Origin: Octopus vulgaris
Taxonomy: Eukaryota
Length of the DNA: 64,000 nucleotides
Assembly (NCBI GenBank): GCA_951406725.2
Contig: OX597822.1
Coordinates: 53,878,001 to 53,942,000 of the forward strand
Reading direction: 5' to 3'
Each line of letters begins with the position of its first letter. The first letter of the stretch is position 1. The notes below the pieces were generated by a model, which saw only the letters and a list, made by a program, of their open reading frames with translations, made no database searches and was not told where the DNA came from. The translations under genes and the position numbers were made by a program. Shown here piece by piece: positions 6,506 through 55,228 of the stretch.

Positions 6506-6975
6506 ATCATCATCATTATCATCATCGTTTAGCATCCGCTTTCCATGCTGGCATGGGTTGGATGGTTTGACTGGGGACTGGTGAGCCAGATGGCTGCACC
6601 AGGGCTCCAGTCTGATCTGGCAGAGTTTCTACAGCTGGATGCCCTTCCTCATGTCAACCACTTGAGAGTGTAGTGAGTGCTTTTACATGCCACCTGCACG
6701 AGGGCCAGTCAGGTGGTACTGGCAACGGCCACGCTCAAATGGTGTTTTTACATGTCACCCGTATAGGAGCCAGTCCAGCGGCACAGGCAACACTCTCGCT
6801 CGAATGTTGTTTTCACGTACCACTGGCACAAGTGTCAGTAAGGCGATGCTGGTAACAATCGTGGTCGAATGGTTGTTTTTTACGTGCCACTGGCATGGGG
6901 GCTAGTCAGCGGTCCTGGCAACAATCACGCTCGGATGGTGCTCTTAGCGCTCCACTATCACAGATGCCAGTCATG
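6506..6975 (-). mobile_element. SINE-like repeat with RTE-type tail (GGAAGGGCATCCAGCTGTAGAAA...(GAT)n)
   Basis: The same family recurs at about 15800-15930, 20090-20220, 23750-23930, 24550-24990, 38640-38750, 42241-42620, 51975-52290 and 54720-55080. Longer copies carry internal tandem GGTGGCACGTAAAAAGCACC units. Confidence 0.75.
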
Positions 6976-18638: not shown

Positions 18639-19039
18639 CTAGCAGTATCGCCAGGCGTTGTTCGGGTTTGTAAGGGAAATAACTATAAGTATTTTTAGAG
18701 AGTTATAGCAAAAAAAAAAATAGCAAAAAAATGCATTAAAAATGGGAAAAAAATGATGGTAAATTTTTTTAAAAATCGTTGACTCATCGTAGACATTTTT
18801 AGAGAGTTACTTCCCTTATATAATATCGAAAAAATGCATTAAAATGGAAAAAAAATGATGGTAAATTCTTTTTAAAATCGTAGACTTATCGTAGGCGCGT
18901 GCTAATACCCAGAAGGGCTCGATATGAATCACGACTATAAGATACCCGGTTTGGGTTAAACTGCACCGCAAAATGTGGGAGTAGTTAGGAATCTAAATCG
19001 TAGGAGACAGACACACAACCTTACTTTTATATATAAAGA
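18639..19039 (-). mobile_element. Non-autonomous Helitron
   Basis: On the minus strand it starts TCTTTATATATAAAAG and ends with a CCCGAACAACGCCTGG hairpin then CTAG. It is inserted between A and T, and closely matches 32038-32420. Confidence 0.85.
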
Positions 19040-19651
19040 TTTTTCAAATCAATCTCCTTATTGAAGCCTTCATCAATGTTCACTGCATTCACTTCTATCA
19101 TCATCTCTTTTGTCTGTCAGTCCCGTTTCACACTCTCAAAGACCCACCCAGCTACCTTCAATTTACTGTCCCTATTCTCTCATCATCCACCTTCTTGTTC
19201 TTTAAATGTATGTCCTGACACTTCATCTTCACTATCCTTTCTTCCTGTGTTGCTAGGGTAGCCATGTATCCCCTCTACATGCAAGATACATGGCACCTGC
19301 TTCTCTATCATACTTTAACCTCCACTCAGTCAAAGGAGCCTTGAGAGTTACTTGGTGACCTTGCTAGTGCTGGTGCCATGAAAAACAGCACTCAGTACAC
19401 TCTGTAAAATGGTTGGTGTTTGAAAGGGTATTCAGCCACAGAAATGATGCCAAAAATAACATTGGAGCTTAACACAGTCCTCTGGCTTGTTGGATCCTGT
19501 AGAACTGTCCAATTTTTGCCAACATAGAATACAGGGGTCAAGTGATGATGATGATGATGCCACTGCTGCTGATGATGTAGTAGTACTATATAAGCATGAT
19601 GTTTCACATTTGCATGCAGTTAAATGTTTTTTTTTTTTTGCTTTTTTACAG

Positions 19652-27655: not shown

Positions 27656-28039
27656 CGTGGGTAAAAAACATTTCGTTGACTGGCCAGCATGTTTGAATCA
27701 GTGGCGATCTGGCAGAATCGTTAGCACGCCGGACGGAATGCTTAGCGGTATTTCGTCTGTCTTCACATTCTGAGTTCAAATTCCGCCGAGGTCGACTTTG
27801 CCTTTCATCCTTTCGGGGTCGATTAAATAAGTACCAGTTACGCACTGGGGTCGATATAATCGACTTAATCCGTTTGTCCTCTCAGCGTTTAGCCCCTTGT
27901 GGGTAGTACAAAAATAGGTTCTCATTTGGGATCCATATAAGATCTTGTTAAAATTTATGTGCAATAAATTGCTTATACCTCTACGATACACCAAGTATTT
28001 AAACTATGTATATATATATATAATTTATTATATAGAAGG

Positions 28040-28090
28040 AGCTTCTACAGGACTAGAACTGTTTCATTCAAGAGAAATCTTCAGGAAGCT
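28040..28090 (-). ncRNA. Type I hammerhead ribozyme (inverted copy)
   Basis: Exact reverse complement of 29682-29732. Confidence 0.75.
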
Positions 28091-28573
28091 AGTTAACGAG
28101 AATTGTATTGGCATTTATACATTTAGGCAGGTTTAAAGGGGTGGTGGTGGGGGACTTTTTGGGGGTAGGCATAGCGCAAAAAAATCATACTTGGGGGAGT
28201 GGTCAAGGAGTCAGTGGTAAATTAGATAGAAGAATAAATAAAAGAATAAAAAAAGGAGAATAAAAAAATATATAGAAGAATAGAGTTTTAGGTAAATAAG
28301 GAAAATCTCACTTATACCTATACACATATGTATACATATACACACACACACACACACATATACATACTCACATACATACACACACACCCATATATATATA
28401 TATATATATATACATACACACATACATATACATACATATCCGCATACATACATACATACACCCATACATACATACATATATACACACATACACACACCCA
28501 CACGTATACATATACATACATATACGCGCATGCATACACATACAAATACATACACATATACATATACATACAT

Positions 28574-28606
<33 letters not shown>

Positions 28607-28978
28607 CACATACATACACATACATACATACATATACATATCTACACACACACACATACATACACATATACACATACACGCACATACACATATACATGCG
28701 TACCCATACACACACACACACACACGCATCCATATATACACATAAGTACACACATGCGTAAAAGTATACATATATCTATGCTTACACATACACACACACA
28801 CACGCCACTCCTTATGTTCATACTTACATGCATACTCAAAAAATAAGTAATAAAATATATACGTGCAGTTATTCATACATGCATACTCAAAAAATAAATA
28901 ATAAATAATAAATAATAAATATTAAGTATATATACGTGCAGTTACCTATTATACAGACGGATACATACATATAAACTT

Positions 28979-29029
<51 letters not shown>

Positions 29030-29330
29030 CATATATATACATATATATATATATATATGTACACATACTTACACATATGTACATATACATACACACATAC
29101 ATAACTCTACGTACCTACATATACCTAAACACACGAGCGTACACGTATATGTACATATACACATACACATACACACGCATATATACATACATACACATAC
29201 ATACACGCACATATACACACATATATATATATATACATACATATATATACACATATATATATATATATACATATACACACATACACACATATATACATAC
29301 ATATACATACACACACATACACATACACAC

Positions 29331-29376
<46 letters not shown>

Positions 29377-29681
29377 ACATATACACATACATACATACAC
29401 ATACATATACATATACACACATACACACACACACATACATATATACACACCCACACACATACATATACATACACACATACCTAAAACTCTATTCTTCTAT
29501 ATATTTTTTTATTCTCCTTTTTTTATTCTTTTATTTATTCTTCTATCTAATTTACCACTGACTCCTTGACCACTCCCCCAAGTATGATTTTTTTGCGCTA
29601 TGCCTACCCCCAAAAAGTCCCCCACCACCACCCCTTTAAACCTGCCTAAATGTATAAATGCCAATACAATTCTTGTTAACT

Positions 29682-29732
29682 AGCTTCCTGAAGATTTCTC
29701 TTGAATGAAACAGTTCTAGTCCTGTAGAAGCT
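29682..29732 (+). ncRNA. Type I hammerhead ribozyme
   Basis: Stem I AGCTTC/GAAGCT, core CTGAAGA, stem II TTC/GAA, core GAAA, stem III ACAG/CTGT. The GUA site predicts cleavage after 29726. Confidence 0.78.
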
Positions 29733-29815
29733 CCTTCTATATAATAAATTATTTTTACTCTGCTATGTATTGAGTACCTTATTTACTGTGGTTAACCACG
29801 AATCAACCCGGGACC

Positions 29816-29855
<40 letters not shown>

Positions 29856-29946
29856 ACTATACTGTAAAGTGTCAAAATGTATGTAAAATCTACTAATATA
29901 ATGAGCATTGTCTTTTTATATATTTGTATATATATTTGTGTGTATG

Positions 29947-29989
<43 letters not shown>

Positions 29990-30064
29990 TAGCAGAATTG
30001 CCCGGCGTTGCTCGGGGCTGAATTGCTTGAAAGTACTGTTAATGATTGCACTGAATTATGATGA

Positions 30065-30586
30065 TTATTCGGGCAAATATTGATATAAGCTTACGGTGGG
30101 AGATAAGGACTTAACGATCAAACGTGTGCCATTGCATTGTTTTGGGGGAACCAAATTTCTGATGAGCATTATAGGGGCACCAACTTTAAGTTTGAGAACG
30201 TGTGGTGGTAGTCCGGGGTGCTCAAAGGAATTGAGTACCTCTATTGGATAGTTGATGACGTCCTCTGGGTCAGGAGTTGTATCGATAGACTGATATACAT
30301 AGACTTCCCCAGGAATGAGTTTTAGCATTTCATCATTAATATGGTGAACAGTTTTATTCCTCGGGGCCAGTATAGCCTTTTTGCCAATCCAATCCATATT
30401 CTGATAATTAGCTTGTAGATCTGGGAACACTGCATCTCTGAGATCAGAAGGCGTCTTAACAATGGTACAAATGGAATCGATGGCAATATTACCATTTTCA
30501 TCCCCTGGTATTTTGCCTTCGCCAAGTGCAAGGAGGGTGTGAGGAAATGCTGCTGATGTGATATTACGTCGCATATGAGCACGCAT
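30065..30586 (-). pseudogene. Helitron RepHel Pif1-helicase fragment
   Basis: The motifs AILAPRN, YPIEVLNS, PGLPPHVLKLKVGAPIMLIRNL and CNGTRL are characteristic of Helitron Pif1. Only a 173-aa internal piece is present. Confidence 0.9.
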
Positions 30587-30834
30587 ATTGGTGTGAAGTT
30601 TGAGAGTTACTTCCCTTTATTAAAAAAAATATGCATTAAAATGGAAAAAAATGATGGTAAATTATTTGTAAAATCATAGACTCATCGTAGACGCGCGCTA
30701 ATACCCAGAAGGGCTCGATATGAATCACGACTATAAGATACCCGGTTTTGGTTAAACTGCATCGCAAAATGTGGGAGTAGTTAGGAATCTAAATCGGAGT
30801 AGACAGACACACAACCTTTCTTTTATATATAAAT

Positions 30835-31512
30835 ATTTTCGTCCTAAAAAACTTTGTATGGATTGAATGGTTACCTCTATGGAAATATATACACGCACAT
30901 TATACATACATGTGTGTATAGATGAATATATAAATACATTTAAATATCTATATACACTTTTGGGCGATCTTTCTGTTTCTTAGAGATAACTTTAGATCTT
31001 ATTTTCGTCCTAAAAAACTTTGTATGGAGTGAATGGTTACCTCTATGGAAATATATACACACACGTTATACATACATGTGTGCATAGATGAATATATAAA
31101 TACATTTATATATCTATATACACTTTTGGGCGATCTTTGTGCTACTTAGAGATAACTTTAGATCTTATTTTCGTCCTAAAAAACTTTGTGCGGAGTGAAT
31201 GGTTACGTGTATGGAAATATATACACACACATTATACATACATCTGTGTATAGATGAATATATAAATACATTTAAATATCTATATACACTTTTGGGCGTT
31301 CTTTCTGCTACTTGTATATACTTTAGATCTTATATTCGTCCTAAAAAACTTTGTATGGAGTGAAAGGTTACCTCTATGGAAATATATACACACACATTAT
31401 ACATACATCTGTGTATAGATGAATATATAAATACATTTAAATATCTATATACACTTTTGGGCGATCTTTCTGCTACTTGGATATAGGTCTTATATTCGTC
31501 CTAAAAAACTTT
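30835..31512. repeat. Minisatellite, about 166-bp unit, about 4 copies
   Basis: Units (A-T-T/A-TTCGTCCTAAAAAACTTT) start at 30835, 31001, 31167, 31332 and 31492. Confidence 0.9.
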
Positions 31513-32037: not shown

Positions 32038-32420
32038 CTAGCAGTATCGCCCGGCGTTGCTCGGGTTGTAAGGGAAATAACTATATAAGCATTTTTAGAG
32101 AGTTATAGCCAAAAAATGCATTAAAAATTGAAAAAAAATTAAGGTAAATATTTTTTAAATCGTTGACACATCGTAGATATTTTTAGAGAGTTACTTCCCT
32201 TATATAAAAGCGAAAAAAATGCATTAAAATGGAAAAATATGATGGTAAATTTTTTTTAAATCGTAGACTCATCGTAGACGCACGCTAATACCCAGAAGGG
32301 CTCGATATGAATCACGACTATAAGATACCCGCTTTTGGTTAAACTGCACCGCAAAATGTGGGAGTAGTTAGGAATCGAAATCGTAGGAGACAGACACACA
32401 ACTTCACTCTTATATAAAGA
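32038..32420 (-). mobile_element. Non-autonomous Helitron, same family as 18639-19039
   Basis: TC start, 3' hairpin and CTAG end. Its CTAG abuts the TC of the neighbouring Helitron. Confidence 0.85.
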
Positions 32421-33966: not shown

Positions 33967-33967
33967 A

Positions 33968-34828
33968 CTAGCAGAATTGCCCGGCGTTGCTCGGGGCTGA
34001 ATTGCTTGAAAGTACTGTTAATGATTGCACTGAATTATGATGATTATTCAGGCAAATATTGAAATAAGCTTACGGTGGGAGATAAGGACTTAACGCCAAA
34101 CGTGTGCCATTGCATTGTTTTGGGGGAACCAAATTTCTGATGAGCATTATAGGGGCACTAACTTTAAGTTTGAGAAAGTGTGGTGGTAGTCCGGGGTGCT
34201 CAAAGGAATTGAGTACCCCTATTGGATAGTTGATGACGTCCTCTGGGTCAGGAGTTGTATCGATAGACTGATATACATCGACTTCCCCAGGAATGAGTTT
34301 TAGCATTTCATCATTAATATGGTGAACAGTTTTATTCCTCGGTGCCAGTATAGCCTTTTTGCCAATCCAATCCATATTCTGATAATTAGCTTGTAAATCT
34401 GGGAACACTGCATCTCTGATATCAGAAGGCGTCTTAACAATGGTACAAATGGAATCGATGGCAATATTACCATTTTTATCCCCTGGTATTTTGCCTTCGC
34501 CAAGTGCAAGGAGAGTGTGAGGAAATGCTGGTGATGTGATATTACGTCGCATATGAGCACGCATATTGGTGTGAAGTTTGAGAGTTACTTCCGTTTATTT
34601 TAAAAAATATGCATTAAAATGGAAAAAAATGATGGTAAATTATTTGTAAAATCATAGACTCATCGTAGACGCGCGCTAATACCCAGAAGGGCTCGATATG
34701 AATCACGACTATAAGATACCCGGTTTTGGTTAAACTGCATCGCAAAATGTGGGAGTAGTTAGGAATCTAAATCGGAGTAGACAGACACACAACCTTTCTT
34801 TTATATATAAATACATACATACACACAC

Positions 34829-41580: not shown

Positions 41581-43105
41581 TCAAGGAATCTTTATTGATT
41601 CTCCGACTTAACCCCAAAATTAACAATTGGCTGGAGCTGCCACTGCCATAACCAATTTCTTTCTTTTCTTTTCTTTTCTACTATAGACACAAGGCCCGAA
41701 ATTTTTTGGGAGGAAGCCAGTCAATTAGATCGACCCTAGTATGTAACTGGTACTTAATTTATTGGCCCCGAAGGATGAAAACCAAAGTCGACCTCAGTGG
41801 AATTTGAACTCAGGACGTAAAGAAAGACGAAATACCCATTCCTTTACTACCCACAAGGGGCTAAACACAGAGAGGACAAACAAGGACAGACAAACGGATT
41901 AAGTCAATTATATCGACTTCAGTTCGTACCTGGTACTTAATTTATTGACCCCGAAGGATGAAAGGCAAAGTCGACCTTGGTAGAATTTGAACTCAGAATG
42001 TAAAGAGAGACGAAATACCGCTAAGCATTTCGCCCGGCGTGCTAACATTTCTGCCAGCTCGCCGCCTTGCCATAACCAATATCATCACCACTATGATGAT
42101 GATTGGTATTGTTGCCTGCATGCACCAACTTTGCCACTGCTGTGATTGAAACCATCATTGCTACAATGATGAATTTTGTCATTTTCTCCCAGGCCCTTTA
42201 CACCAACTACTACAACATCTACCCCTATTACTACAAATACTACATAAAAAGCACCATCCGAATGTGGCCGTTGCCAGTGCAGCCTCCACTGGCTTCTGTG
42301 CTGGTGGCACATAAAAAGCATCATCCAAACGTGGCCGATGCCAGCACCGCCTTGACTGGCTTCTGTGCCGGTAGCACAAAAAAAAGCACCAACCGATCAT
42401 GGCCGATGCCAGACCCCTCTGGCACCTGTGCAGGTGGCACGTAAAAAGCACCCACTACACTCGCGGAGTGGTTGGCGTTAGGAAGGGCATCCAGCTGTAG
42501 AAACACTGCCAGATCAGACTGGAGCCTGGGGCAGCCCCTGGCTCCCCAGACCCCGGTCCAACCGTCCAACCCGTGCTAGCGCGGAAAACGGACGTTAAAC
42601 GATGATGATGATGATGACCACCACTGCTGTCAACATACAGCAAACCATCCATCCTTGTCCCCACCCCCACTGTAGTCGACTTTTTTAGCCACCAGCAACA
42701 TTATTTTTGGAGAACTGCTGTTGCTATCATTCCATTTGACAAACTGGGTGGGGGCAGACAAAGTAGGTTTGTCACTACCTATTCAGCAATCAACATGGCA
42801 GCAATCAACATTAGTGGTTCTCAACCAGGGTCCATTTGGCCCTTGGGGGGTTCACATAGGATTTTTGTTGTTAAAATTTATTGTGGCTGCGTGGTAAGAA
42901 GCTTGCTTCCCAAATACATGGTTTTGGGTTCAGTCCCACTGTGTGACATCTTGGGCAAGTGTCTTCTACTATAGCCTCAGGCTGACCAAAGCCTCAAGAG
43001 AGGATTTGGTTGATGGAATCTGAAAGAAGCCCATCATATGTATGTGTATATATATATATCATCATCATTGTTTAATGTCCGTTTTCCGTGCTTCCATGGG
43101 TTGGA

Positions 43106-47575: not shown

Positions 47576-47773
47576 TCATGCAGCATCAACATCAGTTATT
47601 TCATTTTTCATTGGTATTTCTTCTGCACTAGGGCTTCGAGATGGGGCATCGTTCTTGTCTCGTTTCCTCAGACAACATCGGTAGGAAAGGCTGTCAGTTT
47701 TTCTGGTTGAGAATACCTTGTCGTATAATACTGACCCTATGATACTGCCGGTTAGTGGACCAATCCAGTAGGC
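47576..47773 (-). CDS. Aquaporin (MIP family), last coding exon (AYWIGPLTGSIIGSVLYDKVF...DVDAA*)
   Basis: CATACAG acceptor. YWxGP starts TM6, and the exon ends TGA TAA. Confidence 0.9.
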   Translation of the reverse strand, partial: AYWIGPLTGSIIGSVLYDKVFSTRKTDSLSYRCCLRKRDKNDAPSRSPSAEEIPMKNEITDVDAA

Positions 47774-48096
47774 CTGTATGGAAATAATAATAAGACCAAT
47801 AAAAATGAATGGATAAACTATGCGTTCCGATAACAAGAAGCAGTTACAAACACCACAGACCTGATATTGTTCTGAGGGACAGAGAACAAAAGTTGTGTAT
47901 CATTGTAGAGGTCAGCAGGAGTTCATCATAAGTTCACCATTTATTATGGTGAACTAATGTTGAACTTATAGATCATGTACCCTCCTCCTCCTCCTCCTCC
48001 TCTTCCGCTCTGTTTTCTTTGATTGTGACAGTTGCAGGATGTGCAGACCCTGGATCATCTTCAAAACTCTCCCTCCCCTACCTAAATTCAGCTGCC

Positions 48097-51530: not shown

Positions 51531-52599
51531 TCATCATGTGGGAGGGGTGTACCATTATTACTAATTCCCTACAACAGAGAACCCCCACACAAACTGATTT
51601 GCTGATTCTTTCAGTTCACAAGTATGCTTTTCTGGGCATCATTTTCTTTGACCACATTTTTGCATTTATGGCTAAAAATAATGATGTTTCTGCCAATATG
51701 TTTGCCGGGTCTACATACCACCACCACATCGCTGGAACTGTGAAGTGCACAGTTCTCTACAAGGATCTTTGTATTTTTTTTTTCATAAGCTAGAGGACAG
51801 CTACTGCCATTAAGTACACAACACATTCCTTGGATAATGGAACAGTACCTCTAATAATTCTAGGAAAATAAAATAATTGTGTGTCGCCTTGTCGTAAATC
51901 TTTGTGTTACCACGTGTAACAACAACGATTGAAAACACACCACTCTACCTCGTAAGGATAATTGTAAGTACACCCCAACTGGCCTCCGTGCTGGTGGCAC
52001 GTAAAATGCACCATCCAATTGTGGCCGTTGCCAGCCTCGTCTGGCCCCCGTGCCGGTGGCACTTAAAAAGCACCATCCGATTGTGGCTGTTTGCCAGCCT
52101 CGTCTGGCACCTGTGCAGGTGGCACGTAAAAAGCACCCACTACACTCACGGAATGGTTGGCATTAGGAAGGGCATCCACTGCTAGATCAGGCTGGGCCTG
52201 GCGCAGCCTTCTGGCTTCCCAGAACCCAGTTGAACCGTCCAACCCATGCTAGCATGGAAAACGGACGTTAAATGATGATGATGATGATCCCGAATTCTAA
52301 AAAAACCATACACACAGTTTTACATATCAGCATGCACCACACATGAATATATACACAAAGCGAATTTAAATCATATTTTCTTTTTTTTCGCTGAGGCATT
52401 GCAGTGAGTATCATGCGCATATTATAAACACACCAACCATTGACTCCTTACATCTCTCGATTGTACATAAGCACAAAGCTGTGTAACTGCCTGCTTCTGG
52501 GAATATAGTCAAATGAAATTACTCTTGTTAAACGGTACTTTTGGGTTTAAACTATTGGGGCTGTTGCATGAAGCTCTTCTCTTATGTTTGTTTACTTAC

Positions 52600-52680: not shown

Positions 52681-55228
52681 CTGAAATGGAGGAATTAATG
52701 TTTTAATCATACAAATTTGAAACAGTAGCAAAAAATATATTTGAGCTGGGACATATGCAAGTGTCTCAGATGTATAGAGAAAGAAATTAATGCTGTGACA
52801 ATTATACCTTTACAAAAAAAAAAAAGCATTAGAAATATAAGTAACGATGATGATGATGGTAGTGGTTATCATGGTGGTGGTGGTGATGATGATGATAGTG
52901 ATGATGATAATGATGGTGATGATGATGATGGTTATGATGCTGCTGCTGCTGATGTTGATCACTACCTCTCCAAGATCATGCAGGTGAACTAGACCAAAGT
53001 GTGTTACATCATTTATATGGTAACTGTCACATTTGTATGTTATAAGTGTGATGTTTATAAGTCTCTACATATTGATATTTGGTGAGTCCAACTGAAACAG
53101 ACAGTATTAACTTAAAATAACCATGAGTCTATTATACTAAATGTATGTATTTTTAGCAAAACATGTCTAAAAAGAGATTTTCTCTCAGATAATTCCACAG
53201 CAGCATGCCTTCCTGCTGTGTGTATGCCTTTAGTATGTTACACAGACAGCAATTTTAATATAATAATGTTTGAATTGCTTGCACTAAATTTTTCACAACC
53301 TGGCAAGCATTCTGCAATATCAGTGAATGTATTATTCACTGATTTCTATATCGAGGCATGAATTTCATTCAAGCATATGACAAATGGGTACACATTGCTG
53401 ACAAGACCCAAGAAGGGGTCTAACACTCTCAAGAGTCACTGTTGCGATGAGGTTCCCTTTGCTTTGATATAAATTGTGATTTTAACACAACAATTCTATG
53501 AAAGGATTTTGTGTGAGACAATTCCATAGCATTATGTCTTTTAAAAATATGTATACATTTTGTATGATACACGGATGTTTTTTCCCGTGCCAGAGAGGCA
53601 ACGCTGGTAATGATCACGCTTGAATGGTGCTTTTTACGTGCCACCGGCACGGAAGCCAGTCAACTGCTCTAGCAATGATCACGCTCGGATGGTGCTCTTA
53701 GCGCTCCACTAGCATGGATGCCAGTCATTGAATTTGATTTCGATTTAAGAAAATTGGGTTTATTTTTTGGTGGAGTTTACTTAAAAACACTCTTCATCTA
53801 ATGGAATGATGACTGAGTGAAGAAACCTCTATACAAACATATGGTCTGCTAAAAATAACGACCAAATCTTACTAAACTCATAACTTATATATAAAAAAAT
53901 GCAAGTCCATGTTTGATAATGTGATCTTAGATAGACAATGACTGAAGCAAAACAAACAAAAAAACAAAAGACAAGATAGTTAGTGTGGGAATGCTTTTGA
54001 TCATAGATTTGTTGATGAATTCTGACCTAGGGTTAAACAGGAACATTGACAGTAACAACAGCAAAAACACGACATAAATAACAACAACAACAACAACAAC
54101 AGCACCACCACAATGATGACCACCACTACCCCCACCACCACCAGGCGAAATGCTTTCATTTCACGAAATTACTTAATCAAATTATCTGAATTATTAATTA
54201 AATATATTTAAGTGTAGCGCCCATAATTTTTTTCTTTTTTAGTAACTTGTAAAGCTGCCAATGATATTTAGAAATAATTAGTCATATTGACTTCTAGCAT
54301 TGGCAAAATCCGACAAATTTTGGAGACAGGTATCCTCCTCCTCCTCCTCACCACCACCACCACCACCATTTTAACATACACTTTTCCATGCTTGCATGGG
54401 TTGGTCAGAATTTATTGAGGCAGATTTGTTATGGTTGGACACCCTTCCTGTCACTAACCCTCACTTGTTTTCTAAACAAAGTAACTCCCTATGGTCAAAC
54501 TTTTTTTTTATTAATGGAAGGTTGGAAATGAATGATATCATGCGTATGATATCAAGACACGGGACAAATACACACACACACACTTCCTACATCCTCTTCT
54601 ACACATTCCCCCCACACACTCCCATATACGTGTGTGTATGTTTGTTTGTGTATGTGTGTGAGTGTGTGTGTATATTTACATAGCAACAACAACAACAACA
54701 TTAATGGAAATTGTAGCTGTGATACCAGTGCCGGTGGCACGTAAGCGAACCATCCAAATGTGGCCATTGCCAGCGCCGCCCCGACGGGCCGCCATGCCAG
54801 TGGCATGTAAAAAGCACCCTCCGATCGTGGCCATTGCCAGCCTTGCCTGGCCCCTGTGCCGGTGGCACATAAAAAGCACCATCCGACCGTGGCCGTTTGC
54901 CAGCCCCGTCTGGCACCTGTGCCAGTGGCATGTAAAAAGCACTCACTACACTCACGGAGTGGTTGGCGTTATGAAGGCCATCCAACCGTAGAAACATTGC
55001 CAGATCAGACTGGGCCTGGTGCAGCCTTCCCAGACCCCAGTTGAACCGTCCAACCCATGCTAGTTGGAAAGTGGACGCTTTAGTTGAGTAATTAACACTA
55101 GGACTTATTCTTTGCAAGCCTAGTACTTATTCTATCGGTCTCTTTTGCTGAACCGCTAAGTTACAGGGATGTAAACACACCAGCATCGGTTGTCAAGTGA
55201 TGTTGGGGGGACAAATACAGACACACAA

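Follow-up and report, generated by a model that had tools for sequence, protein, structure and literature searches.

The window, meaning the whole 64-kb stretch of Octopus vulgaris DNA that was analysed, contains two long inverted arms that each carry a hammerhead ribozyme motif and together enclose a microsatellite tract. The locus is real, young and mostly accounted for by the known behavior of Penelope-like elements (PLEs). With a probability of about 0.78, it consists of two head-to-head copies of one high-copy, hammerhead-bearing repeat in (TA)n, most likely produced in one recent insertion by a Penelope-like RT/endonuclease from elsewhere in the genome.

Arms, tail and interior of the locus

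The inverted arms (28020-28294 and 29478-29752) are 275 bp each and are complementary at 274 of 275 positions, the sole mismatch being G at 28098 versus T at 29674. The sequence-only reading had described 274-bp arms beginning at 28021; the inversion and the single mismatch stand, and the length and endpoints are corrected here. The left arm is the 3' end of a long minus-strand copy without a tail, whereas the right arm is an inverted, 5'-truncated copy on the plus strand. A 66-bp tail of the kind known as an optional 3' extension of PLEs follows the right copy only (29753-29818, plus strand). It contains a perfect 12-bp palindrome and, near its end, an AC-rich stretch that resembles the AC-rich stem loop where the Poseidon RT starts (PMC11167929). 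The inversion junction is a 2-bp TA overlap (29478-29479) that is compatible with the microsatellite and the arm alike. The 6-mer that opens the right arm also occurs in the interior at 28315, 28943, 29112 and 29122 (an 8-mer match at 29122), and these recurrences are possibly degenerate units or alternative microhomology sites.

Both flanks are (TA)n, in which a target-site duplication cannot be read. The left remnant of the target (28009-28019) runs into the first base of the arm and is shorter than the (AT)17 remnant beside the right copy (29819-29852). When the arm and tail were compared with the 64-kb window by blastn, the two matches were the inverted pair itself; there is no third copy in the window and no direct pseudo-LTR (pLTR) from a partial tandem at the locus. 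One difference in 275 bp corresponds to an age of ~0.5 Myr (95% range 0.01-2.8) if the octopus rate quoted in PMC13282606 applies and the arms have not been homogenised. Most contigs of the wider family, described below, are 90-99% alike, and the earlier description of the insertion as recent is thus supported.

The interior (28295-29477, 1183 bp, read on the minus strand) is an imperfect CA/TA/CATA microsatellite of a single polarity, with 230 CA and only 13 TG on the plus strand. Runs of dinucleotide type make up 78% of it, compared with 9% of the remaining window. Its two blocks measure 578 and 484 bp, and no other tract of this type in the window is longer than 291 bp. The tract is also degenerate (66-73% matches by TRF). 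To call it almost pure CA/TA, as had been done, was an overstatement: the start of the interior (28295-28318) is not repetitive, and an island at about 28803-28925 contains a duplication spaced 51 bp (28820-28859 and 28871-28910) in place of microsatellite.

There is no real ORF in the interior, and all frames of the element are of low complexity. No RT or GIY-YIG ORF occurs in the element, and Pfam found no GIY-YIG domain among the 13 window ORFs scanned. The copy is therefore non-autonomous and, having neither an ORF nor a direct tandem partner, is probably a dead end. The surrounding window is rich in other repeats, with fragments of Pif1, RT, integrase and Tc3 transposase in 7 of the 13 ORFs scanned by Pfam. 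Two Helitron-like fragments with a Pif1 2B domain (29988-30835 and 33967-34813) share 98% identity across 848 bp. Four 166-bp tandem units (30834-31512) directly follow the former, and shorter related pieces lie near 18725-19043 and 32183-32416. Related tandem units of 62-67 bp are found at 42242-42452, 51979-52137, 54795-54942 and 6677-6813. A minus-strand frame at 47576-47899 has no Pfam match, but it resembles what we take to be the last exon of an aquaporin.

The hammerhead motif

Each arm contains an identical 51-nt type I hammerhead with a 6-bp stem I, CUGAAGA, a 3-bp stem II, GAAA, a 4-bp stem III and GUA. The left copy occupies 28040-28090 on the minus strand (C3 at 28084, H17 at 28046). 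The right copy occupies 29682-29732 on the plus strand, with stem I formed by 29682-87 and 29727-32, C3 at 29688, GAAA at 29707-10 and H17 at 29726. Both motifs have the CUGANGA, GAAA and UH core elements and the three helices that define a type I hammerhead. Positions 10.1 and 11.1 are both U (29695 and 29706) beneath the short stem II, so that the closing base pair of helix II is missing. Stem III includes the A15.1-U16.1 pair, and its CUAG-centred loop is able to pair with itself. The two identical, complete ribozymes that had been proposed, including the stem lengths, the GUA site and the U-U mismatch, are thus all found in both arms.

A hammerhead descriptor matches only these two sites in the window, and any match at all arose in just 4 of 200 dinucleotide shuffles (mean 0.02). 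At gathering score Rfam reports no hammerhead anywhere in the window, and there is none among the 88 matches with E<=10 over 27900-29900. Those 88 matches are driven by repeats and nearly all belong to miRNA or snoRNA models, none reaching gathering score.

Folding predictions for this RNA depend strongly on its ends. In the isolated segment 29680-29735 the hammerhead fold is predicted to lie 1.2 kcal/mol above the minimum, with pairing probabilities of 0.95 for stem I, 0.53 for stem III and 0.06 for stem II. With flanks (29670-29745 and longer), a rival fold is predicted to be favored by 4.4-5.3 kcal/mol and the probability of stem I is at most 0.02; a separate prediction agrees on the minimum folds. 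The transcript 29670-29745, which had been suggested for a cleavage assay, would consequently be a poor choice (predicted stem I probability 0.02 versus 0.95 for 29680-29735). Self-pairing of the stem III and loop III segment is predicted at -14.8 kcal/mol, as a dimer design requires. If the element is read through from end to end, all 51 of the 51 ribozyme bases in the RNA are predicted to pair with the opposite arm, whichever strand is transcribed. The ribozyme would then be buried in an arm-arm duplex, and cleavage at this locus is predicted to be unlikely, whatever the motif does in the family. The earlier statement that a transcript from either strand contains one ribozyme holds as a description of sequence, but not of the predicted fold.

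Variation across the family bears on whether the motif is functional. Contigs from four short-read runs list no variant of at least 5% at any invariant core position. The only such variant listed within the 51 nt is at N7, the free core position (11-22% of depth). This restriction is a weak sign of selection and, for the PLE reading, is tempered by the chance of about one in four that N7 would be the single variant among tolerant positions. No variant is listed in the four runs at the two U positions (28066 and 28077 in the left copy), and therefore the U-U mismatch is the family state. It has a published precedent that cleaves weakly (PMC7229834). The hammerhead is the family's own motif and is likely to work there weakly, as a dimer or with the help of a protein.

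The repeat family and the source of the interior

The arm and tail (29478-29818) are matched in 20 of 24 listed sequencing runs, which come from 10 studies and carry five organism labels; none of the matching runs is recorded as RNA, although several may be. The family was characterized from short-read contigs of four of the 24 runs (X1, X2, X3 and X5) that align on 27900-28335, numbering 10216, 3788, 3116 and 2064, respectively. Some of them align on a separate repeat in the left flank: 27915-28004 is a fragment of another high-copy repeat, with a depth near 100,000 in three runs and loose ends that look like what is presumably a hAT-type MITE end. The flank junction itself (28001-28034) was left out of the comparison as repeat. 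On the arm, summed depth reaches 1-2.7 million (X1-X3), compared with ~50 for two long flank contigs (X2). Summed contig depth is not copy number, but it suggests that the family has thousands of copies or more. In X1, 2161 of the 10216 contigs are at least 99% alike and most are 90-99% alike. The left copy has two private letters, a G at 28098, where the family letter is A in ~100% of depth in all four runs, and an A at 28303, where G makes up 95-99% of depth.

The shape of the contig depth suggests that family sequence crosses the inner end of the left arm at 28294/28295. In all four runs, coverage of 28275-28289 exceeds that of 28260-28274 by a factor of 3.4-4.8 and remains high through 28319, and depth over 28290-28319 is 8-50% of that in the hammerhead bin; in X1 and X5 the inner-end depth is well under that bin. 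There is no pile of loose ends at 28294/28295 among the contigs listed. Equally, none of those listed bridges this point with 31 letters on each side; the best extends 8 letters past it, which weighs against the PLE reading, as does the unreadable target-site duplication. If family sequence does continue, then the segment at 28295-28335 (minus strand) is the part of the left copy that lies 5' of the arm and grades into the CA/TA repeat. The left, minus-strand copy would thus be the longer one, and the length of the arms would reflect only the point at which the right copy was truncated. A symmetric element with defined 274-bp inverted pLTRs, as first proposed, does not fit such a layout, although the Penelope-like origin implied by the term pseudo-LTR is supported.

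Two further features of the contigs concern the pairing of the copies. The arms agree at 7 sites that are polymorphic in the family, an agreement with a chance of 0.03-0.07 if the sites are unlinked. Linked subfamily alleles would raise this chance and weaken the argument that the PLE reading draws from it. Loose ends at 28090 (25 contigs in X1 and 5 in X5) begin at the 5' edge of stem I, pass a short palindrome and continue into a second, inverted hammerhead, which in X5 has a different, TA-rich stem II. Head-to-head joins therefore recur in other copies of the family, with library fold-backs as another possible source of these contigs.

The polarity of the interior never flips, and therefore no part of the upstream tract belongs to the right copy. 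For the same reason the possibility that two truncated copies each brought half of the tract was rejected. Expansion of the 1.2-kb tract at the locus once the insertion had occurred was rejected as well, because a tract this degenerate is difficult to reconcile with arms that are 0.4% apart. The interior must then have been copied in or have been present already, and most likely it arrived with the left cDNA in an already degenerate state. Within the PLE explanation, the balance tips slightly (55:45) toward the interior being the family's own microsatellite-rich upstream region over host sequence copied after read-through or a template switch. The suggestion that such an element is a vehicle that may spread microsatellites is plausible, although carriage is shown only for the first ~40 bp of the interior, and it is not new, since the same was reported for a shrimp Penelope (PMC7878876). 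A bolder extension is doubtful, namely that the whole interior is family sequence. The family would then be a protein-less, Penelope-dependent retroelement with a compound CA/TA body, and its copies would number from thousands to tens of thousands in several related species. It would be a main source of the long compound microsatellites in this SSR-rich genome, and its family-wide U-U hammerhead would work only in dimers.

Family-specific patterns have no matches in metagenome contigs, viral contigs or prokaryote genomes. A looser hammerhead pattern matches at least 108 metagenome loci; 45 of the 108 listed have a hammerhead with an extra U and a stem II of at least 4 bp. None of the listed loci matches the arm, tail or inner segment (blastn, E<=1e-3), and RT and GIY-YIG motif patterns are absent from all 174 ORFs of the 22 such loci of at least 2.5 kb among the matches listed. 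These loci show just that the core context is widespread. Three of them contain head-to-head hammerhead palindromes of ~220-340 bp that are 73-82% self-complementary (L019 1574-1908, L060 879-1219 and L028 6037-6554), which are older PLE-like stubs from other organisms.

Proposed insertion mechanism, rival explanations and known systems

The features of EN+ PLE insertions that are present here are a type I hammerhead in a terminal repeat, a head-to-head inverted 5'-truncated copy, a tail on one side only and a (TA)n target. We infer a single event with unequal truncation, in which the enzyme would act in trans. It would nick the (TA)n target on both strands, and the 3' end at each nick would prime cDNA synthesis on a family RNA. 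The left cDNA would begin at an inner start site and therefore lack a tail, and the right cDNA would begin at an outer start site and include the 66-bp tail. The left cDNA would traverse the hammerhead and the 275 bp of the arm and then proceed into GT/AT-rich upstream sequence, which is the interior, while the right cDNA would end after 341 nt. The two cDNA ends could then be joined through the 2-bp TA overlap at 29478, a microhomology. No RT or GIY-YIG ORF is linked to the family, and PLE membership thus rests on architecture. The locus behaves like a truncated EN+ PLE insertion; formal membership requires a partner ORF, which is absent from this copy. Also counting against the PLE reading are a tail longer than the published 30-40 bp (PMC8557442), a hammerhead to which Rfam is blind and the 4.4-5.3 kcal/mol by which an alternative fold is predicted to be favored in context.

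The most serious rival holds that nothing was carried: the microsatellite tract was already in place, and a near-identical family copy inserted on each side of it, whether as separate events or as one concerted event at two nicks 1.2 kb apart. The interior is degenerate in the manner of host tracts elsewhere, and such runs account for 9% of the remaining window; family copies are numerous and at this locus lie in (TA)n, and a PLE protein is a predicted dimer (PMC11167929). Even so, this account is unlikely. A (TA)n target is absent from both inner ends, the transition from the left copy to the tract is gradual and made of family sequence, both interior blocks exceed anything else in the window, and the shared alleles together with the pairing of a tailed and a tailless copy suit a single standard event.

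It is more improbable still that assembly or polishing across a long repeat produced the inverted structure or the identity of the arms as an artefact. Tandem and inverted PLE structures are known to trouble assemblies (PMC8557442), and neither flank junction is bridged by a contig among those listed (28001-28034 having been left out). The arms are nevertheless asymmetric in the way of real PLE insertions, with a tail on one and a longer 5' run on the other. The left copy's two private letters also speak against an artefact, and a fold-back chimera would mirror the interior, whose polarity is constant. There is a comparably slim chance that the locus is a self-contained element resembling a foldback, a MITE or a retrozyme, in which fixed inverted arms form the ends, the whole is copied as a unit and the two ribozymes release unit-length RNAs from either strand. 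The long, near-perfect inverted arms, the complete hammerheads and the lack of an ORF would fit this description. However, the tail makes the arms non-terminal, the family has no fixed inner boundary, and a lone ribozyme on each strand can cut an RNA at just one of its ends and would, by prediction, be hidden within the duplex of the two arms. Retrozymes, moreover, are direct tandem repeats (PMC7229834). In their strict forms both versions were rejected on the features examined: a MITE or foldback DNA transposon has symmetric inverted repeats at its very ends, with fixed boundaries and a target-site duplication, and would have neither a tail outside one arm nor family sequence continuing inside the other, and a non-LTR retrozyme consists of head-to-tail 150-400 bp units that each have a hammerhead, whereas the copies here are inverted and the locus has no tandem unit.

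A single Penelope-like insertion is thus the preferred reading. By itself the locus is one more young insertion of PLE type, and it draws attention to a hammerhead-bearing family of very high abundance that goes unrecognized by Rfam. Should the family itself carry the microsatellite, it would give the genome's compound CA/TA tracts a countable mechanism and call for caution in marker design, and it would extend the report on shrimp Penelope (PMC7878876). With its U-U mismatch and 4-bp helix III, the hammerhead is also a simple natural variant for comparing monomers with dimers. Octopus vulgaris is reported to have 31 recently active Penelope-like families (PMC13282606). Literature searches gave no account of this family or of a cephalopod PLE with a microsatellite body, and passages of PMC8967140, PMC12602865, PMC3124438 and PMC6962438 contain nothing on this family; Repbase, Dfam, the Zenodo library of PMC13282606 and supplements may contain one.

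The closest known systems are the EN+ PLEs, which insert as inverted 5'-truncated copies with a tail of 30-40 bp at either end and a bias for (TA)n (Craig et al. 2021, PMC8557442). Like Penelope/Poseidon, Neptune and Hydra elements (PMC8557442; Arkhipova et al. 2013, PMC3846280), the octopus locus has a head-to-head truncated copy, one tail, a hammerhead near the 3' end, a (TA)n target and microhomology at the 5' join. It differs from them in having no ORF or direct pLTR, a 66-bp tail and a longer copy whose 5' part is microsatellite. In the Poseidon element two RT start sites define the tail, and the hammerhead cleaves only when protein is present (PMC11167929). Pen1 of Adineta vaga captures host or non-coding DNA next to or between its pLTRs (PMC3846280). 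Its spacers of 0.9-1.5 kb are similar to the interior in being non-element DNA that adjoins a pLTR and non-coding DNA between pLTRs, but they are unique to each copy and some have target-site duplications, whereas microsatellite fills the octopus locus, with family sequence making up the first ~40 bp of that filler. In Litopenaeus vannamei, SSRs are taken to move with recent Penelope-like copies (Yuan et al. 2021, PMC7878876). Recent copies, SSRs inside them and an SSR-rich genome are common to both cases, but the shrimp copies have an RT gene, and the octopus copy is nearly all SSR with carriage by the family putative.

The hammerhead has two close relatives. HHR_Amex2 of the axolotl (Cervera and de la Pena 2020, PMC7229834) is likewise a type I motif in which a U-U mismatch underlies helix II, and it is reported to reach 22% self-cleavage in an hour as a monomer and more as a dimer. 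It is part of tandem retrozymes of 350 bp, and its helix III has 2 bp and a tetraloop, in contrast to the 4 bp and 8-nt loop found here; tandem retrozymes are described as derived from pLTRs (preprint 10.64898/2026.07.22.740005). The minimal PLE hammerheads of metazoans act as dimers with low activity and can occur as motif pairs on opposite strands 100-700 bp apart (PMC4209133). They resemble the octopus motif in their type I fold, their location in a terminal repeat, a U after A9 and a self-complementary helix III for dimers (Cervera and de la Pena 2014, PMC4209133). Their G10.1-C11.1 pair and long helix II (7-8 bp in Schistosoma) are replaced here by 3 bp stacked on a U-U mismatch, together with a longer helix III.
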